A stretch of DNA of 64,000 nt from Mytilus edulis. Its lineage: Eukaryota. How positions within the stretch are numbered: position 1 is the first letter of the stretch; each line of letters opens with the position of its first letter. The notes beneath the pieces were generated by a model. That model worked only from the letters and a program-made list of their open reading frames with translations. It had not been told where the DNA came from and did no database searches. The translations under genes and the position numbers were made by a program. The stretch is from assembly GCF_963676685.1 (NCBI RefSeq), contig NC_092351.1:89652001-89716000 (forward strand), given 5' to 3'. Positions 275 through 54,733 of the stretch are shown one piece after another.

Positions 275-2547
275 GTAAGTATACATTTTTATATGCCTTT
301 TTTAGATTTTTGTTGTATAATTATACCTGAGTTCATCTACTTGTAACATGTGTAACTAGGTCTGAAAAACCATTATTTTCAAAAAAATGTTTTGGACCAT
401 AATTTTCAGACTCGAACAGGATTACAGTGTTCCTCTATAATACTGTTCATGGTATAATCATAAACAAATCGATACATGTACCACTATGAAACATCAGGAC
501 CATGTAACTTATCCTTGTTCGTCATTTCATCATTCCATCATTTGACAACGAACTCTGTACGGATTTTTTTTTCCTAAACGCATTTACAGACTGTTGGTCT
601 TTGGTATGTGAACCTAATATTATGAGTTACAAATTGAGTTCACGTTCGGTTCCGCTCTGCTGAATTTGGCAGAAAGTAGGCACTTTGGACTTTTCGTGAA
701 AATAACATGCATAAACACTTTGTTCCTTAACGCATTGAAATATTTTGAGTTGATTTTTAGTTTGTGAGTCTATTGTGATGAGCTATAGATCATTTATTAC
801 ATTAAGTGCCATTCCTCTAATTTTTTAGAAATCACGGGAATTAAACTTCAACAAATCCGAGTTATAACAGCTGAAAAGTCCTTTTCGTGAAATCCTTCTA
901 ATAATGAGTTTGCAACCGTTTTTGAAAACGGGACCATAATTAAGTGTCTGACACCACATCTTGGTACTGTTTCTGTTTCATTTCACTCTTTGTAATCTAC
1001 ATTTTGAGGAGTTGCAAGACAGGAGTACCAAGTTCAGCTGGAGTACATATAAAAGAAACCATATTCAACCCACACAGTGTTAACGTGTGAAGGATAGTTT
1101 ATTTTATCTGTAGATGGTTTTTTTCTACCGCGATATTTGCTGCATTTTAACAATGTTTGATTTCATTGCTTGGTCTTATAATTGTCTTTTTATATAACCT
1201 ACTATTGCCAATGCCGTCACAATTTGTTTTGGATAACAGCATTGACTATTGCACAATGTTTCCATCATCATAACCATAGGTGTTAAAACAGATTACAATA
1301 TTGCCAGAATTCCCCTTTAGATTACAACCAACAATGACAAGAACCAATGATGGATTTACCCAGATTATTATTTTTTCAAAAACAAATAAAGCTTTGTTCG
1401 TTTCTTTTTAGTTTCAAAATCGGAAAGCGTAACAGACTTAAAATTGCTATATGAAATAGCCAAAAATCGTCGAAACGCAAGGTTCAGAACAGAAATCAAG
1501 ATACAAGAAGACATTGTTCATAATTTGTCCGTATAAAGGGGAAACACCTTGTATGTTGAATTTTAAGCTTAATAACTTTAAAACTACCTGCTTTCTTAAG
1601 TTTACGTCCAAATCTTGTTTTAAAACATGATGATTCAAACCTTCCCATTTTGTAAAAAGTCAAATTTTCAGCATTTTCCTTCAGATTTACAATACATTTT
1701 TGTAAATACCCGTCAAAGGAAGTTTTCTAAAACACATTAGTTTTAGATCTATGACTGAAATGGACTGGATTATTCGCAAATTTAATATTATTTATAATTT
1801 CAATCTTAGACTAAGAGAAGTAATTTAATAAAAAGGGCAAAAGTCACGTGGTGCAAATCATATGAATAAAGTACCTATGATTCGATTGACTACAATTGAA
1901 TTTATGTTTGGAATACCGTTCAGTAGCTGTTGTACATCTTTTTCATCAATTTGTATTGTCACTTCTTTTTATTTTCGTTATTTGTTGTTTTAGTCTTTAA
2001 TATCAGAATGTCAAATTTTACGTCATTATTGAAATTATACATTTGTTTGTTTGTTAGTTGAACCGTATGTGTAACAACGTCCAATTGTGAGCTGAAGTTG
2101 TATAGAATATATCGAGATTGTAATCGCTAAGGTTAACAGGTTTATAAGGAAATGATTCAAACCTCGCTGTTGATGGAAGTGACTAGATTTGTATTACAGG
2201 TCAAATGTATTACACTCATTTAATCACAACAATTGTAAAATTGTAACCAGTTATATATCTGTATTCAAGATAACATGATCCATTCACTGATTTATTACAG
2301 ACAATTTTTTATTAAAATATTTAATGAATATCGTTGTTAAAGGTTTTCCTTGAAGCGTGCTGAAAAATCTTATTTCATTTAGTATTTCAAAGCTGATGTG
2401 ACATTCTTATTTCTATATCTTTTTTTCCAAATAACATTTCATTTGTCCATATCATTTCATTTTACTGTATTTGCATTACCTTATACATTTTATAACGATC
2501 TTGGTAACTATTCTATAGATCAATCTTTTTTTTTCTATTTATTATAG

Positions 2548-2556
2548 AGTTTTTAA
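2548..2556 (+). CDS. 9-nt phase-2 microexon of TRIM-like paralogue, cassette A (x-V-F-K)
   Basis: ttttttttttctatttattatag|AGTTTTTAA|gtaagt; both flanking introns are homologous to those around exon 60606 of the B-box gene. Confidence 0.75.
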   Translation, partial: SF

Positions 2557-5500
2557 GTAAGTATACATTTTTATTTGTCTTTCGTTAGATATTCGTTATA
2601 TTTTTATATCTGAGTTAATCTAGTATCTGCATGTAACTAGGCCTGAAAAACCATTACTTTCACATAATGTTTTGGACATTATTTTCAGACTCGAAAAGGA
2701 TTACAGCGTTCTTCAATAATACTGTTCATGATATAATAATAAATAAATCGATACATGTACTACTGAAAAACATCTGGACCACGTAGTTTAACCCTTGCTC
2801 GTTATTCCATCATTCAATCATTCGACAACAAACTATATACGGAATGTTTCCTAAACGCATTAACAGACTGTTGGTCTTTTAGTATGTGAATCTAATATGA
2901 TAAACTACAGACTGATTAACATTGGATTCCGCTCCGCTGATTTTGGCAGAAATTAAACTCTAAACTTGGAAAATATCGTGAAAATAACATGTATATACGT
3001 TTGGTTCCTAAACGCATTTAAATATTTTGAGTTGATTTTTTCTCTGTGAGTCTATTGTGATGAGTTGCAGATAATATTTACATTATGTTCCATTCCTTTA
3101 ATTTTTTGCCGAAATCGTAGCTATGATTTGAGCTTAAACAAATTTGTTAAAATAACAGTTATTAAGACTATTTTGTAAAGGCCTACCCATATTGAGCTTG
3201 CAACAGTTTTTGAAAACGAGGCCATACATGTCATTCTGACACATCAATGTATTGGTTTTGTTACTCTTTGTTATCTGTAATTTAATGAGTTACACGGCAG
3301 GAATTCAAAATATTACTGAACACGTATTTAAAAAAGATTATCAATCCACGCAGTGTTAACATATAAAGACTAGTTTATTTTATCATGTTGATAGTTATGT
3401 CGTCCGCGCTATTAGCCTTATTTGAGAATGTTTGATTCCATTTCTTTGCCTTATAATAGTCTTTTTATTTATCCTACGATTACCAATGCAGTCACAATTC
3501 ATTTTGGATAACAACAATGATCTTTGCATTAGGTTTCCATCATAACAATAGTTGTTTAAACACATTACTGAATTGCCAGAACATACTTTTAGAATATAGC
3601 CAACATAAGACAAGAACCAATTTTAAATTTAACCAGATTTATTGTACAATTTTACCAGAAATATTATACATTTTTGTACAAATTGAAAAGCCACCTAGAC
3701 TGTTAAATGTCTGACTGTCCTATTCTTGTCTTTTCTTTGTTCGGATTTTTCTCCTAACTGTATCGAAATACAAACTGAATATTATTTAAGATTAGTTCAC
3801 AAAGAAATATGATGTTGTTCATAAATTCAAAGTGTCAATCAAACAACTCCAAAGAACTTCCATTAACACCAAGATATCAATGTCTGAATAATTATTGTGT
3901 CTGTATATATGGTTACTACTGAAATTTCTAGAAAACCATAGAAATTTAAATTTTGCACCGTAGATTATGATCGTTCTTGAATCATTATACAAGTCAAATA
4001 AAAGTTCTTATCATTCCATCAATGTCAATTATTGCTCCAGTGATTTGCTAACATTTTTTTGTAAACAAATTTAAATGATAAACAACCCATCATGTAGCAT
4101 ACAACTACCAAATTTAAGAAAGGCAAAACACATTACGCTTAATTGCATCAAATTTCAAATAAGACAACTATCCAACAGACACCAAATTGGATAAATGAGC
4201 AAATTCCTTAATGTGCTCATCATAATGAAGTTAGACAATTCAAAAGAGCAAAACAAAAACCATTAAAATTTACGAGTACATAATGATTACACGATGTGAT
4301 GTAAACCCCCTGTTTGAATTGTTGCTATGGTGGTGCTATACATTAATCCGTTGCTATACAAGTAAATATGTTGATGATGTGTGACTCCCAAAGATAGGTT
4401 TCTATATGTCTAAATCTTTATCACAACCAGGTTCAAAGTTCAACAAAGAAACAAAATAAAACCCCATTGTTTGATGCATGTGTACATCAAGATTATTTGT
4501 CACTAATTAATGATTTAGTATGGTCTTATTTGACTTGATGAATTCTGCATATAGTTGTTATTATTATTTTAATCACCACGCAATTTTTTACGTCTGTTTC
4601 ACAAGAAAGGTATTTTTGTGTACAATTTTACAATAAGTACAGTAGCAGTATAGATTTTTCGTTTTTCTGTTTATGCTTTTCAACTTCGTGTTAAAATAAG
4701 TCATGTCAATTGTTATTTGAGCTCCACTGGGCATGCGTATTACATTGACAATGAGTTTTGCAGTCCTGATATTATTATTAAGTTTTATCATGAATCACCA
4801 GGTAAAAAAATGAATACTCAACGAAATCTTTATTTTCTATAATTATGTCTGTTTTGCTATTTTTAAGACTTACTTTTTGGTTCTGAATTACTAGTATAAT
4901 TGTATCCAATAAACAGTGACGTAAGGTATATGTTCGTCTGAAAACAGCAACAAACAATCTGGGATCTGGGATTAACTTTTAAATCTTGTTCATGTTGGTT
5001 GTATCAGCACTACAACACTTGAACAGGTCCCTAACTGTGTCATACGGCCCGTCAAAATAAATTATAAGACAATCCAACAGAGCAAAAGCAATGGTTCTCT
5101 TTGCCTTATAAGTGTAACAGCTAAATATTAAAAATTACGAGTATATAGTGTTTAGATGATGTGATTTTAACCCCTGTTTTAAATACAAATATCAATTGTT
5201 GTAAGGTGGTATAATACATAAATGAGTCGCTTTCACTAAAATATGGTGATGCTGTGCGGCTCTCAAAGGTTTTATATATCTAAACCTGTATCACTTTCAG
5301 GTTCAAAATTCCACAACCGAACAAAATATAACGCCAATATTCGATTCATGTGTCTATCAACATTATTTGTCACCAATCAATGCTTTTGTGTGGTCATATT
5401 TGACTTGATGAATTCTGCATATAGTGGTTGGTATTATTTCAATCACCACAAGAGAGGTATTTTTGTGTACAATTCTACAATAAGTACAGTGACAGTACAG

Positions 5501-6434
5501 CCTTGCGGTCATATAACTTAATAATTCTTCTTTTTCTGTGTATGCTTTTCAACTTCGTGTTACAATAAGTCATGTCAATTGTTATTTGAGCTCCACTGGG
5601 CATGCGTAATACATTGACAAAGCATGTCTGGTATCTTTAATGAGTTGTGCAGTCCTGATATTATTATTATGTTTATCATGATTTTTCCGGTGAAATTTGA
5701 AAAATCAACGAAATCTTTATTTTCAATAATTCTGTCGGTTTTACTATCTATTAGACTTACTTTTTTAATTCTGAATTACTGGTATATTTATATCAATAAA
5801 CAGTGACGTAGGATATTTGTTTGTCTGACAACAGTAAGAACACATCATATCCATCAGGGTTTAACTTTTTCACGTTGTTCTTGTTGGTTTCATTAGAACT
5901 TCATCGTTTTACGAAATCTTTTTAAATACTTTTAAAATAATCCAGCATTACTGAAGCGCTATGAAATGTCGAAATGTTGAAATGGTACAAAATATTTTGT
6001 ATCATTAATGCTGTTAATACAAATGAGAAAAAAATGATAAAAAATACGTTGTTACAGGAACTAAGACTGCTTCAGATTAATGTTTATGTTTTATAGACAG
6101 AGGAATATCAGTCAGATAATATTTACATACTTTCATTATGTAATGTATCAGAAATCATACTATCAATTAGTAGTTAAAGATCAGAAAGTTTTTATTAAAT
6201 AAAAGTTTGAGGTTAATGAATTCCAATGGAAAAACTAACATGAATGTTATTGTAATGTACTTTAAAGTGTAATTAAAATAAAAAGATAGAAAGCCACAAG
6301 TCGTCTATTTGGAACCGAGTTTTAAATTCTGCTTTTTTTTTATATAAAGATCAAACATTGATAGTCTTCTTTATTAATATTTAGTTAGTCGTTAAGTTAT
6401 AAACTCATTTATTATCTCTTGTAATCTCTTACAG

Positions 6435-6446
6435 AATTGGAAGATT
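6435..6446 (+). CDS. 12-nt phase-2 microexon, cassette A (K-I-G-R-L)
   Basis: aatctcttacag|AATTGGAAGATT|gtaagt; open in phase 2. Confidence 0.75.
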
Positions 6447-8393
6447 GTAAGTATTGTTATGTTATGTGGAAGATAATAAGTATTTGCATTTCATGGATCT
6501 TTTCTAGCGCTGGTGTTCTTTTTCTAAACGGCCTTTACACTAAAGGGCATACGAACAACTTATGTTATATATTCGTCAGTAATAAATTTTAGGCTGACAA
6601 ACTTTTAGAACTTTTTTGAAATATTGAAACCAACAATTATTATTATTTGTTATAAGAAAACTGTTTGATTTACTTCTTTTGTAAGTACATACATAATATA
6701 CATAACATCAATGTGCTTGTTAAATGAAAACAAAAGTGGTTTATCAATTTGTTTACATTTCTTAGATCATTGAAGCACTAAAACAAGATTACAAACAAAA
6801 ATAAAAGAATTGTAAAATAGATGTCATTATTTTTTCCCTTCAACTTAATCACAAAATAATAAACCTATACTACTAGATTGACGAAACACAGAACTATGAT
6901 TAATGTTATGTCGTGGACCTTTTCTCGGAATCTAAACGGAATATTATCTAAAATTAGTTTACAAACTAGTATGATTTTGTTTATAAATCAAAATTGCCAA
7001 TCCAACAACTCCAAAGAACTTCTAAGAATACGAATACATCCATGTCTGGATAATTTTTGTGTCTGTATATATGGTTACTACTGAAACCTCTAGAACACAG
7101 TAGACATCTGAATTTCGCACCGTAGGTTATGATCGTTCTTGGATCATTATGCAGGTCAAATACAAGGTTCTGATCATTCCCTCAATATCAATGATTGCTC
7201 AACTGATTTGTAAACATTTTTGTGAACACATACAAATAATGAACAACCCAATCATGTAAACAACTTATTGGACCACATACAACAAATTAGATCAAGATAA
7301 ATAACTTGACCATTACTTTATCATAATACTACCAAATTTCAGAAAGGCAAAACACATGACGCTTCACTGCATCCAATTTTCAATTGACAAAAAGAGAACA
7401 AACGATGAGAGTGCTTAATATAAACTTTAAATAAAACAATGTGGTATGATTGACAATTGGACAACTGACCACCAGATACCAAATTAAGTAAATGTACGCA
7501 ACAATAGGTCAATAAGCAAACCCTTACTGTGTAATAAGGCCCGCCATAACAAATTATAATACAAACAAAAGAGTTCTCTTTGCCGTATGGGTGTTTCAGC
7601 CTTACATACAAATTTACGACTATATGGTGTTTACATGATATGATTTTAACCCCTGTTTTAAATACAAACATCAAATTTTGCTAAGGTGGTGCAGTACACT
7701 AATCACTCGCTTTCATCTAAATATGTTGATGATGTGCGACTCTCAAAGATAGGTTTCTAAATCTTTATTACAATCAGGTTCAAAGTTCGACAGACAAAGG
7801 AACAAAATTAAACACCATTATTCGATGCATGTGTACATCAAGGTTATTGGTCATTAATCTTTTGTGTGGTCTTCTTTGACTTCATCAATTCTGCATATAG
7901 TGGTTGTTATTCTTTCAATCACTACGCGTTATTTTTACCGCTGTGTAACAAAACAGATATCTTTATTACATTCTCTTCTTTTTTCTTTTCATTCTGTTCA
8001 GCTTCGTATTAAGATTAGTCATGTAAATTGATTTTTGAGCTGTACTGGACATGCGTAACAAATTGACGAAGCTTGTCTGGTATCTTTAATGAGTGTAACA
8101 GTCCTGATAATTTTTTTCCAGTTTTATCATGATTTAGCGGGTAAAAGTTTGAATACTCAAACTCATTTTCAATACTTATGGCGGTTTTACTATTTTTAAG
8201 TCTTACGTTTGGTTCTAAAATACTGCCATATTTCTATCAGTTTTCATTTTCAGTGACGTACAGTATATGTTCGTCTTACAACAGCACCAACACATCATTT
8301 CAATCCGGGTTTCACTGTCACATCTTGTTCTTGTTGGTTTCATCAGCACTTCAATGATTTTAGAAAAAAATATTTAAAATACTTAATACTCCA

Positions 8394-8436
8394 GTATTAC
8401 TGACGAGATATTAAATGTCTAAATGTAGATCTGATA
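8394..8436 (+). ncRNA. Degenerate minimal type I hammerhead ribozyme relic in an intron
   Basis: gtatta-CTGACGA-gatat(taa)atgtc-TAAA-tgtagatc-tgatac: CUGANGA box, stem II and stem I can pair, but GAAA is mutated to TAAA. Paralogous copies near 5945 and 27635 retain cGAAAt. Confidence 0.45.
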
Positions 8437-8873
8437 CAGTATATTTTGTACCATTAATGCTGTTAAACAAATAAGAAATTGCAACATAAACTCTGACTGT
8501 TTCAGATTAAATTTTATGGTTTATATACAGAGGAATGTTAGATTATAATGACATTATGTAATTTATTAGTAAAAATAACTATCAATTAGCTAAAAATCAG
8601 AAAGTGTTGATAAAACAAAAGTTTAAGGTCAATGAACTCCAAGGGAAAAATAACATGAATGTGGTTGTATGGTACTACAAGTATGTACTCATTTTAAAGT
8701 CTTATTCAAATACAAAGATTAGATAGAAAACCAAAAGTTATTTAGAACCAAGTTTTAATTTCTGCTAATATTTTTTTGATATTAAAATCATAGACTGATC
8801 CGTCTTCTTTCTTAATATTGAGTTTATTCGTTTAGCTACAAACTCATTTAGTATCTCTTATAATCTTTTACAG

Positions 8874-8885
8874 AGGCAAATACAT
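8874..8885 (+). CDS. 12-nt phase-2 microexon, cassette A (L-G-K-Y-I)
   Basis: aatcttttacag|AGGCAAATACAT|gtaagt; lies in a tandem copy of the intron unit that carries exon 6435. Confidence 0.75.
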
Positions 8886-9330
8886 GTAAGTATTATTATG
8901 GGATGTGATATATTTATAATAAGTATTTGCATTTCATGTTATGTCTTTGACCTTTTCTAACGGTGTTCTTTCTCTAAACGTCCTTTTCACTTAAGACCAA
9001 AACAACAATTTATGTTATATATTCGTCAATAATAGATTTTAGGCTGACAAACTGTTAGAACTATTTTGAAATATTCAAACAAACAATGATTATTATTTGT
9101 TATAACGAAACTGTTCTATTTACTTCTTTTGTACAATATCAAGCATGTTGGCCTTTTGAATAATAGCAAATTGATTCATCAATCTTAAAATTTCTTAGCA
9201 CATTGAAGATAGCAAAAAAAATATATAACTTAATCAATGAATAATAAACATATAACACTAGATTCAGGAAACACAAAATATTTTTTTAACTGCTGATAGT
9301 TTCTTCCTTTGGTGTCTTTCATCAAACCGT

Positions 9331-9471: not shown

Positions 9472-9489
9472 TGATTGTAAGAAATGTGG
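9472..9489 (+). CDS. 18-nt phase-2 microexon encoding the second CxxC knuckle (D-C-K-K-C-G), cassette A
   Basis: tttttcattttcag|TGATTGTAAGAAATGTGG|gtaagt; both Cys are conserved in the copy at 30851. Confidence 0.85.
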
Positions 9490-9590: not shown

Positions 9591-11092
9591 AGGGGAAGTC
9601 AAAACAAACCGACAAAATCAAACCATCAATCAACGGAACAAGTGAAACACAACACAATAATCTTGACTTGGTACAGGTTTTACAGCTAGTTATGTCGTGA
9701 TAGAGGGGAGGTCCATAACAACTGACAAAATCAAACTATCAATCAACGGAACAAGTGAAACACAATACAATAATCTTGACTTGGTACAGGTTTTACAGCT
9801 AGTTAAGTCGCGATAGAGGGGAGGTTCATAACAACTTGAAAAATCAAACTATCAATCAACGGAACAAATGAAACACAACACAATAATCTTGACTTGGTAC
9901 AGGTATTACAGTTAGTTAATTCGTGATAGAGGGGAGGTTCATAACAACTGACAAAATCAAACTATCAATCAACGGAACAAATGAAACACAATACAATAAT
10001 CTTGACTTGGTACAGGTTTTACAGATACTTAAGTCGTGATAGAGGGGAGGTCCATAACAACTGACAAAATCAAACTATCAATCAACGGAACAAGTAAAAC
10101 ACAACACAATAATCTTGACTTGGTACAGGTTTTACAGCTAGTTAAGTCGTGATAGAGGGGAGGTCTATAACAACTGACAAAATCAAACTATCAATCAACG
10201 GAACAAGTGAAACACAATACAATAATCTTGACTTGGTACAGGTATTACAGCTAGTTAAGTCGTGATAGAGGGGAGGTCCATAACAACCGACAAAATCAAA
10301 CTATCAATCAACGGAACAAGTGAGACACAATACAATAATCTTGACTTGGTACAGGTTTTACAGCTAGTTACGTCGTGATAGAGGGGAAGTCCATAACAAC
10401 CGACAAAATCAAACTATCAATCAACGGAACAAGTGAAACACAACACAATAATCTTGACTTGGTACAGGTTTTACAGCTAATTAAGTCGTGATAGAGGGGA
10501 GGTCTATAACAACTGACAAAATCAAACTATCAATCAACGGAACAAGTGAAACACAATACAATAATCTTGACTTGGTACATGTTTTACAGCTAGTTAAGTC
10601 GTGATAGAGGGGAGGTCTATAACAAGTGACAAAATCAAACTATCAATCAACGGAACAAGTGAAACACAACACAATAATCTTGACTTGGTACAGGTTTTAC
10701 AGCTAGTTTAGTCGTGATAGAGGGGAGGTCCATAACAACTGACAAAATCAAACTATCAATCAACGGAACAAGTGAAACACAATACAATAATCTTGACTTG
10801 GTACAGGTTTTACAGCTAGTTAAGTCGTGATAGAGGGGAAGTCTATAACAAGTGACAAAATCAAACTATCAATCAACGGAACAAGTGAAACACAATACAA
10901 TAATCTTGACTTGGTACATGTTTTACAGCTAGTTAAGTCGTGATAGAGGGGAGGTCTATAACAAGTGACAAAATCAAACTATCAATCAACGGAACAAGTG
11001 AAACACAATACAATAATCTTGACTTGGTACAGGTATTTTTAAAAGAAAAGTGTGGGCTATAGCTGATTCTACAGCTAGTTAAAGTCGTGATA
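9591..11092 (+). repeat. 113-bp minisatellite, 13 copies, intronic
   Basis: gagggg starts at 9703, 9816, 9929 ... 10946 (period 113). The unit contains the dispersed-repeat motif cttgacttggtacagg. Confidence 0.95.
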
Positions 11093-12276: not shown

Positions 12277-12313
12277 AAAGCGTGAGATTCATTTCTTGAT
12301 TGGCGAACTATAA
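12277..12313 (+). CDS. Terminal coding exon, cassette A (G-K-R-E-I-H-F-L-I-G-E-L-stop)
   Basis: attttactatttttag|A AAG CGT GAG ATT CAT TTC TTG ATT GGC GAA CTA TAA; same length, phase and IGEL* ending as the exon at 33255; several AATAAA downstream (for example ~12430, ~12793). Confidence 0.8.
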
Positions 12314-16311: not shown

Positions 16312-16320
16312 GAATTTAAA
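16312..16320 (+). CDS. 9-nt phase-2 microexon, cassette B (x-N-L-N/K)
   Basis: tttttctatttattgtag|GAATTTAAA|gtaagt. Confidence 0.7.
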
Positions 16321-17802: not shown

Positions 17803-19444
17803 AAACGAGGCGTCATTTGTTCATATTATGTCAAAGAAAATGAGAGCAAAAAGGCTCTTCCAATCACTGAGAATAGTTTTATTGCCGACGTTGCACTGGC
17901 ATATATTAATTTGATGACATTATCGTAAATTTCTCTAAATAAACATTCGATATATGCATTGCATCCTTTGTCATAACCGCGTGAACTACTGAATTAAGAA
18001 GGGTATTTTGCTAATTTGCATAACGGCCATTTTGTGCTATCATAACGGCAGCCATTACATTATCATTATATATGCCTCTAAATTAAAAATGCCAATATGC
18101 CAATTTGTATCAACAATTTGTCTGGGTACAGATTTTTAGGGTTCCGTTCGTGTTCAAAAGATCATTGACTACAGCAACTTTGAAAACTTTCAGCCTTTTA
18201 AGTTTTAAAAATCGGAAGCGTAACCAACTGATAATTGCTATATAAAATAGCTAAAAATCGTCGAAACGCAAGGTTCAGAACAGAAATCAAGATACAAAAA
18301 TATATTGATATTGCCAAAACCAAAGCTATGAATTGAGCTTTAATAAATTCGTCATAACAGTTATTAAAACTATTTTTTATAGTCCTTCACATATTGAGCT
18401 TGCAATCGTTTTTGAAAACGAGGCCATACATGTCATTCTGACACATCAATGAATTGTTTTTGCTACCCTTTGTCATCTGTAATTTAATGAGTTACACGGT
18501 AGGAATACAAAGTAGAGCTGAAAACATATTTAAGAAACTAGTATAAATCCACGCAGTGTTAACATGTAAGGACCAGTTTATTTAATCATGTTGATAGTTA
18601 TGTCTCCAGCGCTATTGGCTGTATTTTGACTTTTTGTGATTCCATTGCTTTGCCTTATAATTATGTTTTTTTTTATCCTACGATTACCAATGCAGTCACA
18701 TTTTTTTGTTGGATAACAACAATGACCTTTGCATCAGGTTTCCATCATAACAATAGTCATAAATAACTTTTAGATTATAGCCAACAATGAAAAAGAACCA
18801 ATGATAAATTTTAACCTGGTTTATTTTACAATTTTACCAGAAATAGTATACAAATTGAAATGCCACCTAGACTGTTAAATGTCTTTTCTTTGTCCGGATT
18901 TTTCTCCTAACTGTTTCGAAAATCAAACCGAATATTATTTAAGATTAGTTCACAAAGTAATATGATGTTGTTCATAAATTCAAACTATGAATACAACAAC
19001 TCCAACGAACATCTATAAACACCAAGATATCCATGTCTGAATAACTTTTGTGTCTGTATATCTGGTTACTACTGAAACCTTTACAAATGTTTTAGAACAC
19101 AGTAAAAATTTTGATTTCGAACCGTTGATTATGGTCGAGTTTGTAACCATTCCATCAATTTCAATGATTGATCTAGTGATTTGATAACATCTTATGTGAA
19201 CAAGTATAAATGTTAGACAGCCCAATCATGAAAAATTGTATTGGGCCGCATACAACAAATTAGGGTAAGATAAATTTACACTGATTTGTAAACATTTCTT
19301 GTAAACAAATATAAATGGTGAACAACCCAATAATGTAACGTCTGTCTGGGCCATGCACAACACATTAGGTCAAGATGATTAACGTGAAAATTACAATATC
19401 ATAACACTAACAAATTCAAAAAAGATTAATTAATTGTTAGTTGC

Positions 19445-19965
19445 TGTATGAAGATAATTCGTCAAAGGCTGTAACTTTTTATTGTAAATGATGTTTCAAC
19501 CTAAAAATACACAATATGACAATATTCAACTAACACACAAGTCATAAGTTTGATATGTTGACATCGCGATTGATAACCGTTAATAGACACAATAAGCAGT
19601 TCAAACATTTGTTCAATAATAATGTGCATATCACTTACGCATTGACGGCCTATATCATATCAATCATTAGCTAATAACTTGTAGGTTTTCCAGAATGAAC
19701 AAAGAAGTTCAAAAACCATTTCAGTGTTAAATCGAGTAAGGGGAAAGAAACGAGTCTGTATACAGTACTTTCTGCTCATGATAATACCTCCATAATTTGG
19801 AGCACCACTTCTTTAACGTATAATGTACTTTATCACATAAACAATTCAGGATAAGTCCGTCATAAAATCAATACTAATATCGGAAAAGTTATCAGATTAA
19901 AATAATCGCCATACAATCCAAAATTAATTATCAATCAAAGTTATAATGTTTATCAATCCGATACA
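19445..19965 (-). repeat. 3' LTR of the BEL/Pao element
   Basis: Direct repeat of 25547-26067; I see 2 mismatches. Confidence 0.97.
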
Positions 19966-20008
19966 TTCCCCGCCATAAAGTTTGTGTGAAATTAACTCTC
20001 ATTTGTTA

Positions 20009-23000
20009 CTAACATTGTTCTTCAACTGGAAGCAACACTACAATTATGTGTGCAGATCTTCGGATCAATAAGTCCTGAGTTCCGGTGTATTTAGTTCCCG
20101 GTCCAATGTTCTTGTATCGAACGGTTACATCCCTTGTCACACCATCTCTACTTGAGTTTGCTTCAACTATTTGTCCTAATTTCCAATTACTACGAAACGA
20201 ATTGTTGTCCTGCACAAGAACAAAGTCCAAACTTGAAGGTTCCGTTTACTCACATGCCATTTCTGCCTAATAATTAACGATGGAAAATAATCTCTGTGCC
20301 ATTTTCTCCAAAATGTATTAACTACTTGTTGCACGAATTTCCAACGTTTTTTGAAATTGTCTGATTCATCCCAATGTCCTACTGGCACATTCGAAGATGC
20401 TCTTCCGAGAATAAGATCATTCGGACATAAATATGTTCCCTCGTTCGGATCAGACGTTGAAGTTCCTATAGGTCGCTCATTCAAAATGTTGGCTACTTCA
20501 AGTAACACGGTTTGTAGTTCAGAAAATGTCATGATTGATTGTCCAATGGCAAGACTCAAACTTTTCTTGACGGATTTAATCAATGCTTCACTGCATCCAT
20601 TTTCCCAAGGAGCATCAGCTGCTTTTGTAAATTCCCATTCCATGCCGTTACCGTTCCCAAACATTTTGATCGTATCCCAATGCCAACTTTTTACTACTTC
20701 CTTTAGTTCCTTACTAGCTGATACTAGTTGTGATCCAAGATCCGACCTTATCTTCTTAGGATATCCTCTAATAGATGTAAATCGTCGTAATACCATTATG
20801 AAACTACTAGTATCGTATCCATCAGCAAGATCTACATATACAGCTCTACTGCTCATGCAGTTGAACAACACTCCATAAGCTTTTCCACGAGTGCGCCCCT
20901 TAACGGTATCCTTAATTGTAAGAGGTCCGAAGAGGTCTACTGAACAGTACGAAAACGCTGGTGACGGTTGAAGTCGTTCCAAAGGTAATGGTCCCATTTG
21001 TTGTCCAATACATTTGTTTTCTCGTCTTCGACATATAATGCATTTTTTCCTAATCATAGAAATGTATTTGCGCACCTTTGGAATCCAGAATCTGGATCTC
21101 ACTTTAGCCAATGTTACGTCTACTCCTGCGTGATCCTGATCATGTACTGACTTTAAGTATAACCACACATAATGCCCTTTATTAGGTAATAGCATTAAAT
21201 CAGTTCTGTTCCAAGTGGCTTTCAGCCAATCAGCTAATCTTTTACCAACAACAACTATACCCGCGTCATTCTTTTCTGGAGATAGTCTTCGAAATGTTTT
21301 TATCCAATTATCCGAAATGTCTCTTTGTAAATATCTAATCCATTCAAATTCTGCAGCATTTAGACTTTCGGCAGTTACACCCATTGATGCACCTTTGAAT
21401 GATTTTGTAGTGGCGATTCGCATCAGTATGCATGTTACTCGCAAAAGTTTTGAATATGATGAAATGTTTTCCAGTTTAACATCTTCGAAATTTAAACCAG
21501 ACATTGTATCATTCATCTTCTTGATATCAGATGACATAACAATACCTATCGTGTCGGGTAGCTTGTCATTACCTAAATTACAATCTTGCCTTAAAGGCCA
21601 CTGGTCTATTGGATCATTTAAAAATTTAGGTCCATTTTTCCATATTGAGTTCTTAACTAAATCATTAGGAGATGTAATCCTTGTTGCGAGGTCCGCTCCA
21701 TTGAATTCACTTGGTACGCACCACCAATCGGACGGTTCAGTCTTATTTTGAATTTCTGCTACTCTTGTAGCAACAAATGTGCCGAATCCATAACTCTCTC
21801 GTTGAATTTGTGCCCTAACAATCATTGAATCGACTATGTGTATAACTCGACTAAATTTATAATCCATCTCCTCTACTAACTTTTGTCTAATCCTAGCTGC
21901 CAATACAGCTCCACATAATTCCAGTCTAGGAACAGACATCTGTTTAGTTGGTGCTATACGGTTTTTTGCTATCACTAACCGTGATTCAAATCCCGCTTGA
22001 TCTGTTCCCCATCTGACATATGCACATGTTCCATAAGCTAATTTACTTCCATCCGAAAATATGACTAGCATGGGATCCCCAACAGCATTATTTGGCTTTA
22101 AACATCTGTGAAATTTCAACTGTTCTATGTCGAAAAGCTCTTTGAAAAAATCCATCCATTCTAACCGTGATTCTGCTGACATGGCATAATCCCATCGAGA
22201 ATTGTGTAAAGTCTTGTCATTTGTATTGTTTTCTATGCATAGCTTTCGCATTAGAACCTTAGCTGCTAAAGTATACGGAGTAGCAAGTCCTAACGGATCA
22301 TATACACTAGCAACTTGACTGAGTACCATTCGAGGAGTTAATGACGTAGGTACGCTACTTTCAATCTGTGACTTCGTTATATTTTCTCCTTTCCGAACAT
22401 TCTTGTACTTAGGAGAAAAATTAATCTTCACCTTGAAATCGAACAAGTCTTGTTTTGGATCCCACCTCATTCCGAGAATTTTCTCATGCGCAAATTCATC
22501 TAAATCAACCTCCACGGATTCACCACTAACTGGGGATTGTAGATTACTGCCGCATTTTTCATTCCCAGATATAATCCAATGTTTAATGCGAAAACCTCCA
22601 CATGCCAGCATTTTCTCGGTCTGCTGGGTTATCAAACGAGCATTATCTACACTTTCAACTGACTGTAATATATCATCTACATAACTATTTCTTATCACCA
22701 TTTTTGATGCATCTGGGTAGATGTGTTGATACATTTGTGCTGTTTGATGTAATGCAAGCGTCGAAATAGCTCCACTCGGTCTGTCGCCAAAAGTAACTGT
22801 CAACAATGCATAGTGATCTGGATCTCTGTGTGTTTCTAAATTTCTCCACACAAATCGGTGTGTGTGTGCTGATCTAACGGTGAAAGTCTTATCGCATTGT
22901 ACATTTTTGAAATGTCACCAGCCAAAGCTGTAGATTCTTGTCTGAAACGAATTAAGACCGCTAACAAATCATTGATCACATTGGACCCTTTCGCCCAATA

Positions 23001-25529
23001 GTCATTCAGAGTGTGTCCCATATAAGATGATGAGGAGTTAAATACGATTCTTAATGGTGTCGATTTTGATTCGGGTTTTAATACCTCATGATGTGGTATG
23101 TAATGTATCGGACCGTTATGTCTCATCATTTCCTCCTTGGTCAATTTCCTTGCTATGCCACGTTTCACCATATCCATAATCTGTTCATCGTAGGCACTTG
23201 CATATTTTAATGAATTTCGGAGTAGTCGTTTTTCGGTAGATCCAAGTCTTGATACGGCTGAATTCACGTTATTTGGTAGGTTGTTTGGATTTTTTATCCA
23301 GGGGTAATTTACTATCCATTGCTGTGATTCTTCATCATGTATCATGCCTGATTTAATGATATTTAATTCCCTCTCCTCTCTTAAACTATGTTGCGATTGT
23401 CCCACAGCACATTTGCCACACTTACATGAACCACATTTTAATGTGGTTTGTTTCCCTGGCCCTTCTATGTCAAAAAGAGAATCTAGTTTGTCTTTAATAC
23501 TGTCTCTGTCCAATACATGAATATCATTTAACGGAATGATTTTTCCAGATGCCCAGTAAATACGGACTATGCCATGGTTTGACAATTTTGGCACTTCTAG
23601 ATGAGGATGACTGCCACGAATGCAGTACCCAAACTGATTTTTCATTAACTGTAGATTTCCAATTTGTTCTTCTTTATTAGGCATTAAAATACAACAATCT
23701 GTGCCGATCAATATGTCTACTTGGCAAGTTGGTCTTTGTATATCATTCTTGTTGATACCTTTGAACAGTTGTTCGACTCTACTCATATCAACTCTTGCAA
23801 CCTCGGCCGTAACTTCCTCCATGCCATATGCTTTTATTGTCCATATCTTACCTCCAAGGTCAGTCAACGGTATTACATACTCTTTGCTTTGTACATGTTC
23901 GGTTACATTTCCAACCTTTGTCACAGATAATGTTATATCTTGTCCAGATAATCCTAATCGTTTAGCAGTTTTGTGTGTGATCAGTGACATGTTTGCTCCA
24001 GGGTCCCAAAGTGTTGTCAAAGACATGTCCTTACACTGAACTGAACTGATCATCAATAGTACCCCATTCTTGTTCTTGTCATCGTTTATCACCTGTGTAG
24101 AGTTATGAAAGGATATGCCATCCATGTGTGCAGTGTGCAAATTTTTGTGATGAATTTTCCCACATGGTTGATGAAGTTCATTTTGTATGTCACAAGGTTT
24201 ACGGCTGTGACAATGTCTTGACAAATGTCCTATCTTTAGACAACTGAAACATCCACCATTTTTTCTCACTAAATCAACCTTTGTCTGACTATCTAATCTC
24301 GCAAATATAGAACAATCACCTATTTCATGATTATCTGATTTGTGATACCAACATTTAAACTTCCCTTCTGTATTTCTATTTGTACCGGCATATTTGTCTG
24401 CATTGTATCGACTTGTTGGTTTGTTTGACATTGCTTGAGCTACCTGTGCAAGACCTTCAACAACCTGTTTCATCACTTGTTGGTTCTCTTGTAATTGTAC
24501 TTGTAAGGGATCTACAGCTACATCATTATTATTTTCGTCATTTTCGGATTCATTTGCATCCAAAGTATTGATCTTTCCTTTTGCTGTTCCATATTCACGC
24601 AAATCAGACTCCATGTACTCAAGAGCACTTTTTTCCTCTAACAAAAAATTTAAGAACTCTTTGAAACTCAGGGGAATACTTTTCAATTCTGTCTTTTGTT
24701 TTCGCAATGCCCATTCACGTTTTTGTATAGGGGGTAGGAGTTTTTCTATCTGACTCACCATAGTTGCTGTGTTCATCTCGGATTCGAGGTTCATACGTTT
24801 TAAATCAAGCCAACATTTCTCGACAGTTTCTACTACCGAAATAAACTTCATGTTGTCACCTTCTTGAACTTTCTTTAATCTTTTTAATTCATTTAATATG
24901 TGATCAATCAATTGCTCTGCTCTGCCATATTTCATATCAAGACGCCGAAACATTTCCTCGAAATCATTGTCAACACCTTTCACAACAGTTAAGGCTTCAC
25001 CACTTAAACATTGCTTCAGAGCATAAGGATCTTTACCGTATGACGATATCATGTGTCTTTCATAATCAACTTTGAAACTTGGATAATCACGAATACTGCC
25101 AGCAAAAATAGGAGCCTCTAATTTTTTCACCCTAAACGTTTCAGTATCTTTATTTTTCTTAGCATGCTTCATGGAGTTTTGTTCTATTAACTTACTGTCT
25201 TGTTCATGCTTTATCTTCTGTCTTATATTCTCACACAATGATCTTGATTTACAAAGTTCTCGGTACATACCAGTTAAATCATGATTATATTCGTTTATCT
25301 TTGGTTTGTCTTCTTCATTTTCAGAATCAAATGTTTCTAAAAATACCTCATGTCTTGCTTCTAGTTCTGTGTAAGCTGTTTCCAAATCTTGAAGTATTTT
25401 GTCAACCACAATTATCCCAGACTCATCCTGTATTCCTTCTAGTAAGCGACCATATATTCTATGAAATCTCCCTTTGGCCGTACTTCTTTTCTTCTTTGTT
25501 ACTCTTTTGTGATCGGCATCAACAGACAT
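20009..25529 (-). pseudogene. BEL/Pao gag-pol polyprotein with two frameshifts (about 22860 and about 20230)
   Basis: Gag Zn knuckles (CFSCLKIGHLSRHC), protease LWDPGA, RT (LRIVFNSS, GDISKMY, YVDD), Pao-type RNase H (FSDGS, PRLELC), integrase (HDQDHAG..CIIC, DLFGP, SDLGSQ, PWENG), C-terminal WKLG..V..RDV.V. Confidence 0.95.
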
Positions 25530-25546
25530 CTTGCCTTGCGTTGAAA

Positions 25547-26067
25547 TGTATGAAGATAATTCGTCAAAGGCTGTAACTTTTTATTGTAAATGATGTTTCA
25601 ACCTAAAAATACACAATATGACAATATTCAACTAACACACAAGTCATAAGTTTGATATGTTGACATCGCGATTGATAACCGTTAATAGACACAATAAGCA
25701 GTTCAAACATTTGTTCAATAATAATGTGCATATCACTTACGCATTGACGGCCTATATCATATCAATCATTAGCTAATAACTTGTAGGTTTTCCAGAATGA
25801 ACAAAGAAGTTCAAAAACCATTTCAGTGTTAAATCGAGTAAGGGGAAAGAAACGAGTCTGTATACAGTACTTTCTGCTCATGATAATACCTCCATAATTT
25901 GGAGCACCACTTCTTTAACGTATAATGTACTTTATCACATAAACAATTCAGGATAAATCCGTCATAAAATCAATACTAATATCGGAAAAGTTATCAGATT
26001 AAAATAATCGCCATACAATCCAAAATTAATTATCAATCAAAGTTATAATGTTTATCGATCCGATACA
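25547..26067 (-). repeat. 5' LTR of the BEL/Pao element
   Basis: Direct repeat of 19445-19965. Confidence 0.97.
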
Positions 26068-28092: not shown

Positions 28093-28104
28093 AGGTCGAG
28101 GATT
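28093..28104 (+). pseudogene. Decayed 12-nt microexon, cassette B (acceptor AG changed to AA)
   Basis: aatctttaacaa|AGGTCGAGGATT|gtaagt; positional counterpart of exon 6435. Confidence 0.7.
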
Positions 28105-30140: not shown

Positions 30141-30152
30141 AGGTCAATACAT
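30141..30152 (+). pseudogene. Decayed 12-nt microexon, cassette B (donor GT changed to GA)
   Basis: tcttctaaag|AGGTCAATACAT|gaaagt; counterpart of exon 8874. Confidence 0.7.
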
Positions 30153-30850: not shown

Positions 30851-30868
30851 TGATTGTGAGACTTGTGG
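30851..30868 (+). CDS. 18-nt phase-2 microexon (D-C-E-T-C-G), cassette B
   Basis: ttttttcattttcag|TGATTGTGAGACTTGTGG|gtaagt. Confidence 0.8.
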
Positions 30869-33254
30869 GTAAGTTTTTGTTGCTCCTTTGTTCTTTTTTT
30901 GAAGATGTAGAATGATAAACTTTAATTGAAAATATAACTAAATCGTATGAGTTTAAAACGTATCACAATATACTGGACACCTAAGAACATTATAAAAGAG
31001 GAAGTCCATACAAACCGACAACATAAAACTATCAATCAACGGAACAAGTGAAAAACAATACAATTATCTTGATTTGGTGCAGGTATTTTTAAAAGAAAAT
31101 AGTGGGCTATAGCTGGTTTTACAGCTAGTTAAAGTCGTGATACATCAACCTTTTAAAATATTTTAACTAGATATTCTATTAACATAAAGGCTGCTTTTTT
31201 CAACAGAATAAACATTGAAAACATATAAATGTGCTGAAGCAAAGGAAAACAAAGGATCTTTCTACATAACATAAACACTGGTCTGGTGTTGTACAGAAAT
31301 CGTAACAGATTTAATGGGATTCAAAATTAAAGACAAATATAAACATGATAAAACAAGAGTTGCAATATGAACAGAAAAAAAAATAATTCAAAGTAGAAAC
31401 CCAATTGGATCAATTGGATCAACAGCACTGCCCCTTGTAAGAAATGAAAGCACATTTAAGGATATTTTGTTATTCATTTAACGAAGATTTTTTTGGTGTT
31501 TTGCAACTAATATCAACAAAAAAAGGTTAACAAATTATTAGTACTATGTAAGAACATTGATATATGACTTTTGGAAAATGTATATAATGTACGTTCGCAA
31601 CGAAACATTTGGAGAACTTGGTATATATTCCGGTAGAAAACATTTATAATATATTGGCATTTAAAGTATAATCATGTATAGCCGAACCATCAATGGTATA
31701 CCTTAACCTGGGAGATTTTTTTTATTTTGGTTTCATAACTATCGCATATCTTACTACAAACTCGTTAAAAGAGAACCTAAAGATACCAAAGTGTATTTAA
31801 ACCTATAAATAAGCAATTGACCACGCATTAGCAATAAGAAGAGAATAGAAAATGATAACAAATACAAACAACAGTTTACAAAACATCGAAGTTAAAAGAC
31901 TGAACTACATGAGCCCCTTCCGGTAGTCTATGGTACTTTGAACAGTTGATCAGATTCTGTTCCACATGTGCCAATGAGTGGTCGAAAAAAAACAACAAAA
32001 AAACAAACAAACAAACAAACTCCCAATTAGAGTCATTTCAGATCCAACCATTACATTCCGTTACATCTATTGCTATATATATGAATATCTTGTCGTACGA
32101 TCTGTAAACGACGTTCTCTATCGTGAACATTCTGGTACATTTCCTATGTCACAATGCTTATGTTATTTCATCACAGTAAGTACCTATTGTTCAATGACAT
32201 TTTCTATGCAGAATAATAGCAGGTCCACCTTTGTAAAAAAAAACATAATATCGAACTCCGAGGAAAATTCAAAACGAAAAGTCCGTAACGAAATAACAAA
32301 ATCAAAAGCTTAAACATATCAAACAAATGGATAACAACAGTCATAATCCTGACTTTGTACAGGCATTTTCGTAAGTATTTAAAAGTGAATTAAACCTAGT
32401 ATCTTTTTATGTTGTTATGTTACACTACTGTTAAAAGTTAAAGGAAGGTTAGCGCCTGTTAAAACGTAAAACACACTGAGATTTTCCAAGTCAGAAGCCT
32501 GTTGTTCAGTCGTCAGTTATTGGTATTTATATGAGTTTCCCGTTTCCTTTTTTTTTTATATAAAGTACACCGTTGGTTTTCCTGTTGAATAGTTTACACT
32601 AGTCATGTTGGGGTATTTTATAGTTTGCTTTTGATGTGAACCAATGCTCCGTGTTAAAAGCCGTACTTTGACCTATAATTGTTAACTTTTTGATGTGGAT
32701 GTGTACTATATATCCCGTCAATGTGCTTTTTTAGCTATGGTAATACTTTTGTATTCTTGACTTTAATCTTTGCTAATTTGCTATTTCTATATGCCACAAT
32801 GTTGACTGTTGACTGTTGTACCACATTTTTTGACATTTTTTCCTATTGTGTATGACATTGAGAATGTAGATGGGGAATATATTAAGGAGACGACAACCCG
32901 ACCAAAGAGCAGACAATAGTCGGAGACTACCAACGGTATGCTCATTTTGCATGTATGCTTGTTTTGTTCACACATCATTGTCTATATAACGGAATTTAAC
33001 GCGACTGTCATACAAGCGTAAGTATTAGAAAATACTGTACCAAGTCAGGAATATGACAGTTGTTATCCATTCGTTTAATGTGTAAGAGCTTCTGATTTTG
33101 CCATTTGATTACAAAATTTCAGTTTGAATTTTCCTCGAGTTAAGTATTTTTGTTATTTGACCTATTATGCTTTGTGAACTGGATGGAGAGTTGTTTCATT
33201 GACATCAATACAACATATTTCTTTTTAAATTTTTCTATACTTTTATAATTTTAG

Positions 33255-33291: not shown

Positions 33292-34337
33292 TACAGAATG
33301 ATAATTATAAATATTTGACAAGATATCACAGTTATCTATATATTGTATTATCGCCTTGTTTGTATTACATTTTGTATTTTAAAGTACTGAAGCATTGAGA
33401 TCACAAAAGAGAAATGAATGTCGAAATGACCGTCAGATGTAGTACAATTTGTAATGTTTATAGTATTACTTTATTTTGTATGAAACTGTTATTCAATGTT
33501 ATGCATATCCTGATTTAAAAGATATATACATGTATCATACAAGATTTTATACTTTCAACATTTTCTTCAAATATAATCTTCAACATCAAAGGATAGTGTC
33601 TTTATCATAAGGCAATATTCTACAACGTGAATTTCACTATGAGCTTTACCCTCAGATGTATTTCGCTTATAGTTTTGTTTGGTTGTCTACTTTACGTACA
33701 CTATAGAATAGGGTCTTTGATAATGGCATACACAATTATTCGAAAATGGCATTATTGACCAAATGTATTTTTGTTTGTTATAATATACATTTTTTTAATA
33801 AGAAAAAGAGGAAATTTACTTAAATATTCTATTTCAAGCACGTGTGTCAATTCCCAAAACATGTAAACGATTTGTTTACCAGGCATACTACCAAATAAAT
33901 AACGTAAACTTTTCTAATACTCTTTTGTCACTGGAAACCTATCTCTAGTTTACACAGAACAAAACAGAAAAATACAGCATGATATACATATACATTTTAA
34001 GAAATTATGTGGTGTATTCACTTTGATATGATATAATTACTAAGTTGATTTAAATATTCACATTGCAACTATCACCTAATTTCACTTGACTGCGCGGTGT
34101 TTAAGAAGTTCGCGTATTTAAGACCAGTCCATCTATAGACAGGAGTTTTTGGATAAACTTATTTATGAAGTGTCCAGTTATTCCTTCCATAACATACACT
34201 CAGTTCTTTTGTATATACGTTTGGTGACACTGATAGGTGATTATAATTCAACTATAATTATAACGGCGTCATCCTTATCACACACATCTTCAAATAGAAT
34301 GACCTTATGCAAATTAAAACATAAGCTCCGCCCGATT

Positions 34338-52046: not shown

Positions 52047-52813
52047 ATGACACAGGCTGCGTACAAAACGTGTGAGATATGTGTATCTAGTCCTGGACAT
52101 AACTATTGCGAAGAGTGCGACCAGCTGTTTTGTGATGGATGTAAAATATCTCACTTACGGACAAAAATGAGCAAAGACCATACATTTCTAAGTGGCCCAA
52201 ATATAAACCCAGGAGTTAAACAATATTGTAAAGAACACGATGAAACATTTATATATTACTGCATGGAATGTAATTCGCCGATATGCAAAATATGTGTAAT
52301 TAAAAAACACAAATCACATGACTTTGCTGAAATCAAGGAAACAACTGACGGAATCAAAGCTGAGGTCAAAAAGGGGATGGACATGAAGATGGAACACCTG
52401 CAGTCAAAGATAGCAGATATTGAACAAAGTTCAAACAAATACCAAACTGATGTTAACGGAGTCATTCACGCTATCAGGGAAGAAGGGAAACACTTAAAAG
52501 AGCTGATTGATAAGAAGGTCGAAATTCTGGTTAAATCTGTGAAAGAGGAAGAAACAAAGAATTTACAAATTTTACAGTCCAATAAAAATGAGATTAAAGC
52601 AGCTTTGAATAAGGCAAAGGAGCAGCAGAAGTTCTATCAAGACTCACAGGGTATAAAAGATTCTACGAAATTGATACAAAAGCTAAAACAAATTAAGTCA
52701 CAAATCGACAAAAAAGAAGAAATACAGATTCCTATTATGCCATCAGTCAAATATGTTAGACAGAAAGTAGCAGAGTGTGAAATAGAAAAACTGTTTGGGG
52801 AATTAAGATTTGG
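52047..52813 (+). CDS. RING-less TRIM-like protein, coding exon 1: B-box1, B-box2, coiled coil
   Basis: CEIC..CEECDQLFCDGC..H..H (B-box1), CKEH..CMECNSPICKIC..HKSH (B-box2), long K/E-rich heptads; ends FGELRF-GG|gtaaat (phase-2 donor). Confidence 0.93.
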
Positions 52814-53926: not shown

Positions 53927-53974
53927 AGAAACTGTCAAAAAAGAAGAAAACCCGGAACCGCAGGAGAGCGTCAG
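53927..53974 (+). CDS. TRIM-like exon, 48 nt, phase 2-2 (G-ETVKKEENPEPQESV-R)
   Basis: ttatttttttctcag|AGAAAC...GTCAG|gtttgt; purine-rich, open in frame with exon 1. Confidence 0.8.
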
Positions 53975-54460: not shown

Positions 54461-54733
54461 GGTGGTACCCAACACGTTCACTAAAATTAATTTGGTTCGT
54501 TTAATTTTCATAAAATTTTGTCAAAGTATTTAATTTGATCCTTTAACAAAACTATAAAATTTTCAAAAATTTTGAACCAACTGTTTTGTCAGAAAAATTA
54601 CACTGGTTATATAGCAGTTTAACAAACATCAATTTTGATCATTGAGAAGCTTTATATTCCATTTACAACACAACGTTATTAAAACGTTTAGCTAACTTCA
54701 CAGAGTTTTCTCCCTGTATTGTTAGGTACCACC
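54461..54733. mobile_element. 273-bp MITE with TTAA target duplication (Kolobok-like)
   Basis: ttaa-GGTGGTACCcAAC ... GTTaGGTACCACC-ttaa. Confidence 0.85.

Follow-up and report, generated by a model that had tools for sequence, protein, structure and literature searches.

A cluster of TRIM-like mussel genes, part of which lies in the window analyzed here (a stretch of 64,000 nt), contains old tandem copies of intron-microexon-intron units. We consider it probable that turnover of these units resizes, and that likely positive selection recodes, the loop of a predicted zinc ribbon that would serve as a target-recognition tip. Loop length would shift as units are gained, lost and swapped, probably via unequal crossing-over, while likely positive selection would alter loop sequence, as expected for such a tip. 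Divergence is far faster in the exons than in the introns that were copied with them, a feature that went unnoticed in the preliminary description of this DNA.

Gene family and predicted C-terminal tail

As judged from sequence, the family comprises clustered TRIM-like (RBCC-type) mussel genes with B-boxes and a coiled coil, without a RING and without any described C-terminal class. The window holds the 3′ half only of one gene (A), a mussel B-box/B-box/coiled-coil gene lacking a RING, together with a partial copy that is dead (B) and the beginning of another gene, the third (C). Unless stated otherwise, all features lie on the forward strand. In gene C, exon 1 (52047-52814) encodes two B-boxes and a coiled coil, with no RING. 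It is followed by exons 2-5 (53927-56442, present in public model P0103), namely 48 nt at 53927, 54 nt at 55397 carrying the first CxxC, 18 nt at 56019 and 15 nt at 56428, and by a single 9-nt exon (60606-60614), the one-unit state. The AG acceptor is found in 15 of 16 exon-3 copies across the family. Gene tails are chains of phase-2 symmetric exons of 9-54 nt each. Exon 1 accounts for 256 of about 330 codons, and most of the coding region therefore lies outside the microexons, unlike in a schistosome-type micro-exon gene. Exon 1 has a dN/dS of 0.22, indicating purifying selection.

Both B-boxes (PF22586 and PF00643) were matched above cut-off in P0001 and P0096, and a domain search found no RING finger in P0001, P0053 or P0096; the public models begin at the first B-box. 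The structure model of P0096 contains a long coiled coil (helix 85-200, pLDDT 77-90), for which the TRIM_CC domain matched below cut-off only and Foldseek rows to KAP1, TRIM72 and TRIM5alpha were weak, none reaching E 0.001. C-terminal domain classes described for TRIM proteins include SPRY, NHL, PHD-bromo and others. None of these was detected in the tail with Pfam, where no family passed the cut-off and the only matches, all sub-threshold, were to small zinc-finger families. About 50 residues long, the tail is predicted to fold as a four-cysteine zinc ribbon (CxxC...CxxC), in which the loop separating the two knuckles is likely specified by the microexons. Both CxxC motifs are conserved throughout the cluster. 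Knuckle strands are predicted with low confidence (pLDDT 51 for the tail alone, about 65 at the knuckles and 38 in the loop), and fold searches with the tail yielded no significant match and no VIA-align match.

Gain and loss of tandem units

The preliminary description held that microexons multiply by tandem duplication of intron-exon units. For the two 12-nt units of gene A (3693-6893 and 6925-9278) we recovered the proposed repeats, with 3763-4096 aligning to 6925-7258 (82%), 5029-6683 to 7521-9133 (74%) and 6842-6893 to 9227-9278, as well as the nested sub-duplication within the first unit (4262-5014 versus 5127-5903, 75%). Each carries one microexon predicted to be live, t1 (6435-6446) and t2 (8874-8885, whose exon class has a homologue in public model P0057). 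These two exons differ at 9 of 12 bases, and their flanks are 13% apart. Both have a pyrimidine tract, an AG and a GTAAGT, as does the 9-nt symmetric phase-2 exon of class n at 2548-2556, likewise predicted to be live. Downstream are an 18-nt exon that encodes the second CxxC knuckle (9472-9489) and the coding part of the terminal exon (12277-12313), the first four residues of which are hypervariable within the family. A terminal exon start at 12178 was rejected, as contigs place it at 12277.

The claim of two 9-nt units in gene A survived only in part. The repeat itself exists (274-1366 versus 2556-3639, 76% over 1114 columns), but there is no first 9-nt exon before 275, and the homology covers only about 1.1 kb, along with an upstream portion that has been lost, rather than the whole 2.3-kb spacing. 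Position 275 is a deletion junction, because there is no AG acceptor for an exon at 266-274 and 124-274 matches the plain intron 5 of paralogue g8, with a switch at 275 to a unit donor. Thus 124-274 is intron-5 sequence with no AG acceptor and not an exon, and 275-1366 is the remnant of unit 1, consisting of an orphan donor and the downstream intron. As the deletion removed the exon and its acceptor, the second 12-nt exon is the sole gain in gene A. The remnant clusters with units of B, g1 and g5 in the unit tree, at a fork that is open, and unit 2 (1925-3639, comprising upstream intron, exon and downstream intron) is 92% identical to a unit of gene g14r compared with 76% to unit 1.

Cassette B had been cited as having lost its second 9-nt unit. 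Alignment to gene A confirmed a junction at 18304-18311 that removes the second 9-nt exon (18195-18307 corresponds to A 1404-1516, and 18311 onward to A 3106 onward), but B is a dead partial copy and does not function as a gene. A search for its exons 1-5 found none, its copy of t1 (28093-28104) has a broken acceptor lacking AG, and its copy of t2 (30141-30152) has a broken donor lacking GT. A 9-nt exon (16312-16320) and a copy of the second CxxC exon (30851-30868) are still present. B is interrupted by a Pao/BEL-type LTR retrotransposon on the reverse strand (19445-26067), with 521-bp LTRs that are 99.6% identical and a 5-bp target duplication.

We surveyed the cluster over about 1.2 Mb. A live exon was present in 24 of 33 units of the 9-nt class, the other nine being five dead donors, three exon deletions and one fragment. 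Two or three live n exons occur in 5 of 13 chains and two t exons in one, gene A being alone in having two live exons of the 12-nt class; predicted loop length ranges from 17 to 24 residues across these chains. Each of the 46 distinct live loop exons has a length divisible by three and contains no stop codon; in 2000 draws of random intron pieces of matched lengths, no set was free of stops throughout. At the family level, then, multiplication by tandem duplication stands, with repeats linked to exons and numbers of live units that differ among genes. The further statement that each duplication adds 3-4 residues was overstated, given the units without a live exon, the single chain with two live exons of the 12-nt class, an example drawn from a dead copy and the lack of both copies of an exon in any one read or contig examined. 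Over 14.4 kb, genes g4 and g13 share 98.7% identity; this drops to 80-90% from a point inside a unit, and the two genes differ in unit numbers at the end. A phylogeny of the units was built, in which 13 of 27 inner branches were open and the trees were blurred by mosaic histories. Homology among the n, t, e5 and e8 classes consists only of overlaps and one intron match of 59-66 bp, so that descent from a shared ancestral unit was not supported. Broken units and genes are numerous in the cluster (B, g7, g11 and orphans). The duplications are old, predating most gene duplications. An assembly artefact was rejected as the source of the units, which are only 74-82% identical, although it may account for the 98-99.9% identical twins g3/C and g4/g13.

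Exon divergence, transcripts and alternative explanations

Live n9 exons changed at 4.3 times the rate of their flanks (p 6e-11), n12 exons at 3.9 times and t exons at 2.0 times. The two 18-nt structural exons changed at 0.71 and 0.56 times the flank rate (0.56 for the second CxxC exon), dead n copies at 0.20 times (n = 4 copies, one lineage), and the e5 class showed no excess (1.0-1.25). Six sites that were junction artefacts or had no exon were left out of the exon sets (88692520, 89410644, 89255432, 88963553, 89652275 and 89533811). The n12 and dead-n tests excluded two units because their flanks are truncated. By parsimony, n9 exons underwent 37 changes at six first and second codon positions versus 4 at three third positions, and their flanks 1.55 changes per site, with 0 of 362 flank windows reaching the exon count. 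Intron flanks are a lenient baseline, since exon 1 diverges at its synonymous sites 2.0 times faster than the intron next to it; against third positions the n excess holds (0.66 versus 0.29) and the t excess shrinks (0.47 versus 0.33; parsimony 25/8 versus 12/4). A distant paralogue, about 44% identical, shows the same pattern independently: in a 1.08-kb duplication, only two of the nine bases agree between its two 9-nt exons (7 of 9 differ) while their flanks are 9.2% apart (binomial P 1.7e-6). Positive selection has likely changed the sequence of the 9-nt exons.

RNA-type contigs confirmed the last splice: in 5 of 7 runs, the terminal exon follows directly on the 3′ end of the second CxxC exon. 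These contigs stem from paralogues or alleles and not demonstrably from gene A, and no listed data set is recorded as RNA. Upstream of the CxxC exon the contig ends are loose, mixed consensuses with an agreement of 0.67-0.70, and raw-read runs X23 and X24 (about 6% of reads) had almost zero exon coverage. No read or contig examined had a spliced-in 9-nt exon, or t1 and t2 in one transcript; from the genes we infer that the 9-nt exons are included and that duplicates are included together. Among proteins, transcript-type P0096 has a complete tail with a 23-residue loop, and the public models P0006 and P0095 have two near-repeated 5-residue modules in succession. Searches for further complete tails gave few matches (1, 1 and 3). 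The public gene models examined mostly omit the predicted zinc-finger loop, P0115 ending after exon 4 and P0103 after exon 5.

Other explanations for the repeats and for the exon divergence were considered. If the repeated introns belonged to a transposon family spread across the genome with no relation to the exons, copies should not be confined to one cluster. Yet for two repeat parts for which every candidate was scored, all genome matches (34 of 34 and 30 of 30) fell on C8 at 87.26-89.75 Mb, and the copies keep gene order with an exon at the homologous place. The 9-nt unit query (250-760) had 40 of 51 matches in the cluster, with 40 of 208 candidates scored, and 10 of 51 on other contigs, these being 69-75% identical and limited to the distal half of the query. 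They may reflect an old repeat fragment inside one intron. For whole units the transposon origin is refuted, and we give it practically no credence; the link between repeated introns and microexons, as first described, held. Neutral duplication in an unstable cluster, with the loop a tolerant linker under relaxed selection and exon differences due to drift, would be in keeping with the many broken copies, with possibly constrained flanks and with e5 and t classes near the synonymous rate. Relaxed selection, however, cannot raise first and second positions to four times third positions (37/6 versus 4/3), nor explain why two exons differ at seven of nine bases when their flanks have diverged by only 9%, and frame and stop-freedom are preserved in every live loop exon; we regard drift as very improbable. 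A targeted mutational process, such as cDNA-templated conversion or a local mutator diversifying spliced microexons independently of selection, seems to us a shade less probable still. A transcript-dependent process would likewise make live exons fast and dead ones slow, and sequence exchange does occur in the cluster, but the excess tracks codon position, base 4 of the 9-nt exon is invariant among 15 distinct sequences, the neighboring 18-nt exons are slow and the introns beside the exons are kept.

It is also conceivable, if unlikely, that the duplicated microexons act as alternative cassettes that are skipped or exclude one another. Duplication would then widen the isoform repertoire of each gene instead of lengthening one loop, as in schistosome micro-exon genes or Dscam. 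P0055 differs from P0096 in lacking one 6-residue module, exon 2, with its 16 residues, is missing from the public isoform P0039, and in P0057 exon 2 runs straight to the t exon; moreover, every exon is symmetric and therefore any subset of exons preserves the frame. On the other hand, in P0096, which was examined as a protein, 9 residues separate the e5-like module from the t-like one, a length that fits three 3-residue exons together, and the repeated loss of surplus exons fits a loop-length limit better than free choice. Such cassettes and additive loop growth are compatible, and both can hold.

Significance and relation to known systems

The preferred explanation, in which unit turnover and likely positive selection shape the loop, makes the tail likely to be a TRIM5-like variable recognition tip assembled from microexons. 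More tentatively, and with somewhat less than an even chance in our estimation, these genes would encode intracellular TRIM-like pathogen sensors in which a zinc ribbon built of 3-5-codon exons provides a germline CDR-like repertoire. Birth, death and exchange of exon units would then set loop length, and positive selection and skipping would set loop sequence. Annotation would have missed this repertoire owing to the phase-2 donors, every one of which is read as a stop codon in a kept intron. The cluster allows microexon birth and loss and stepwise change in loop length to be seen with intron homology still readable, and its dead copies serve as an internal control for selection on microexons. 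The analysis also uncovers a domain that likely serves recognition in a family of bivalve TRIM-like genes and is truncated in the public models examined, and intracellular pathogen recognition in mussels therefore becomes testable at a defined 50-residue tip.

Our literature search, which covered few subscription papers, found no description of this mussel family or its tail. TRIM5alpha SPRY variable loops (PMC11281341) and teleost finTRIM clusters (PMC2657112) resemble the mussel family in having clustered B-box/coiled-coil genes, a conserved front, a fast C-terminal tip and loop-length change by internal duplication. The mussel genes, however, have no RING and no SPRY/B30.2, their tip being a predicted four-cysteine zinc ribbon, and their loop length changes as entire microexons, each flanked by introns, are gained or lost, not through indels within one exon; any antiviral activity of the mussel family is putative. 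Schistosoma MEGs, as presented in PMC4350168, likewise have tiny symmetric exons, occur as tandem copies, evolve at an accelerated pace and include one reported exon duplication. Their products are secreted or gland-associated parasite proteins, mostly built from microexons and varied by splicing, while the mussel microexons are restricted to the tail of a host B-box protein and their units can be counted with dated intron homology. Aphid bicycle genes, according to PMC9168663, are likewise a large family with many micro-exons, nearly all in phase 2, under strong positive selection; they are putative salivary effectors with a CYC motif and no B-box or coiled coil, and no sequence relation is expected. 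Dscam exon arrays also diversify a recognition surface through tandem exon duplication, but with large, mutually exclusive exons, whereas the mussel microexons, which may be included together, are 3-5 codons long.

The exon chain of gene A and its predicted tail

The window (G000:C8:89652001-89716000; 32% G+C) contains a single long cellular reading frame, 52047-52817. Its product has two B-boxes and a coiled coil but no RING, and every named homologue (71 matches) is a Mytilus TRIM-like model. At 69% identity or above, this B-box/coiled-coil exon has about 15 copies in the interval 87.3-89.75 Mb; related exons at 30-45% identity form additional large clusters at G000:C8 73-77 Mb and on C11 and C12. 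We analyzed 1.16 Mb surrounding the window, together with outlying copies, and mapped exons by homology of the intron sequence flanking them; the labels g1-g14, o1-o5 and h1-h2 and the exon classes e2-e9, n and t were coined for this analysis.

Gene A starts 6.4 kb upstream of the window. Its exon 1 (B-boxes and coiled coil) and the following exons of 48 nt, 48 nt (with the first CxxC at its end), 18 nt and 12 nt all lie upstream; the chain continues with a 9-nt exon at 2548 (class n), 12-nt exons at 6435 and 8874 (class t), an 18-nt exon at 9472 that carries the second CxxC and, at 12277, the terminal exon, with introns in phase 2 throughout. Public model P0115 matches gene A over exons 1-4 and P0103 matches gene C up to exon 5, and both then end; the sequence suggests that this is because the phase-2 donor GTAA brings TAA into frame. 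P0057, a model from a homologue of gene C, contains that gene's t, second-CxxC and terminal exons. In five of seven sequencing runs (X1, X2, X4, X5 and X9; the other two are shallow raw-read runs), contigs join 9489 to 12288-12305, with differing letters between. These runs are guessed to be RNA and their contigs may derive from family members other than gene A; at family level they establish splicing of the second knuckle exon and variation where the terminal exon starts. In gene C and its twin, the terminal exon contains an internal duplication (G000:C8:89719166-89719290), which lengthens the C-terminus and is also present in P0057. The Mytilus coruscus models P0102 and P0116 contain several copies of the 16-residue module from exon 2, a hint that in relatives this 48-nt exon multiplies too.

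P0096, the sole complete transcript-type tail found, has its CxxC motifs 23 residues apart; P0055 is without one 6-residue module. AlphaFold2 modeled a long coiled coil confidently; confidence was about 65 for the strands around the knuckles and 38 across the n-exon region. The isolated tail did not give a confident model and a structure search with it returned no match; the zinc ribbon is therefore a prediction from its motifs.

Repeated introns and turnover of microexon units

The preliminary description proposed that tandem intron-exon duplications multiply microexons, each adding 3-4 residues to the predicted loop. Every repeat it named was found, and the deletion junction in cassette B, a dead partial copy, had been called correctly. 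Its first 9-nt exon, before 275, does not stand: 124-274 belongs to intron 5, and position 275 marks the junction of a deletion, with an orphan donor left behind. Cassette B is without exons 1-5, both its 12-nt exons are broken, and it carries a recent Pao/BEL-type LTR retrotransposon (19445-26067, minus strand; LTRs 99.6% identical, 5-bp target duplication, two long frames matching the Pao peptidase and integrase-zinc families of Pfam). Within the window, duplication has thus left one extra live exon, one of the two 12-nt exons of gene A, and the proposal is supported in part.

Other repeats in the window are a 113-bp tandem array within the final intron of gene A (9591-11037; about 13 copies, 93-95% identical), present as a single unit in cassette B (30997-31087) and therefore expanded after the A/B split; a 1.2-kb tandem duplication (88%) enclosing dispersed repeat fragments (34331-36635); and a 5.7-kb array of a 37-bp satellite (44365-50117) separating cassette B from gene C.

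Were the repeated introns a genome-wide transposon family, their matches should be unlinked to these exons. Instead, all genome matches of two parts of the 12-nt unit fell within the cluster (34/34 and 30/30, all candidates scored). For the 9-nt unit intron, with 40 of 208 candidates scored, 40 of 51 matches lay on C8 at 87.3-89.75 Mb, one on a small contig and ten, weak and partial, elsewhere. On these matches, the repeated introns are not, as whole units, a transposon. The units of gene A are 86-92% identical to those of other genes, as against 74-79% to their own sister unit, so the duplications precede most gene duplications; trees agree, although they are weakly resolved.

Units have since been lost as well as kept. 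Among 33 n-class units, 24 have a live exon, which measures 9 nt in 18 units and 12 nt in six. Of the others, five share a common dead donor, three have exon deletions, one of which took out 33 bases comprising just acceptor, exon and donor, and one is a fragment. A short inversion, with matches on both strands, lies within the g1 copy of the 9-nt unit, which is dead (G000:C8:88692162-88692732). Class t has 15 live and two dead exons, and in four further units the exon has been deleted. Of 13 chains, 5 have multiple live n exons and only gene A has two t exons; gene C and its twin have a single unit per class. Predicted loops between the knuckles span 17-24 residues in the 13 chains. Genes g4 and g13 are 98.7% identical across 14.4 kb and then diverge within a unit, with predicted loops of 24 and 20 residues; exchange between misaligned copies would be the simplest cause. 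About 800 kb upstream, genes C and g13 have near-identical twins (94-99.9%; G000:C8:88867831-88954742 vs 89703881-89751367), which represent either a recent segmental duplication or an uncollapsed haplotype.

Rates of change in the loop exons

Exon rates were measured relative to flanks on flank-built trees. The ratio was 4.3 for live 9-nt exons (p 6e-11), 3.9 for n exons of 12 nt and 2.0 for t exons, compared with 1.0-1.25 for e5 exons, 0.71 and 0.56 for 18-nt exons and 0.20 for four dead n copies. The 9-nt class owes its excess to the first two codon positions (37 changes at 6 such sites vs 4 at 3 third sites; flanks, 1.55 per site). Synonymous sites of exon 1 evolve at 2.0 times the rate of the adjacent intron, and flanks therefore understate the neutral rate. 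Against a third-position baseline, n exons are still clearly high (0.66 vs 0.29, uncorrected) and t exons marginal (0.47 vs 0.33). Near-saturation is also seen at the two residues enclosed by the first CxxC and at the four that open the terminal exon, whereas dN/dS in exon 1 is 0.22. The distant paralogue h1 (exon 1 about 44% identical) shares this exon plan and has a separate duplication of 1.08 kb. Between the two 9-nt exons of that duplication 7 of 9 bases differ, against 9.2% divergence in their flanks; the sister of h1, h2, has one such exon.

A possible role and comparison with known systems

All loop exons are symmetric; gaining, losing or skipping a unit therefore preserves the reading frame. 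Introns of kilobase length would offer large targets for misaligned recombination, after which new copies may either diverge fast or be deleted. TRIM proteins hold SPRY domains on their B-box/coiled-coil part. Here this part would dimerize, holding a predicted small zinc ribbon at each end, whose exposed loop and knuckle tips might contact a changing target (compare the variable loops of the TRIM5 SPRY; PMC11281341). We infer from this pattern, and from the precedents of finTRIM (PMC2657112) and TRIM5, that the target may be immune; a B-box orthogroup is among those tabulated as expanded in bivalves (PMC8382680).

What appears new is the combination of countable microexon-unit turnover and a predicted, unannotated zinc-ribbon tip in a host TRIM-like family, a combination not found in the literature searched, which included few subscription papers. 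Its elements have precedents: symmetric microexons under positive selection are already known from schistosome MEGs and aphid bicycle genes (PMC4350168 and PMC9168663, respectively), and tips of variable length are a known feature of TRIM5.
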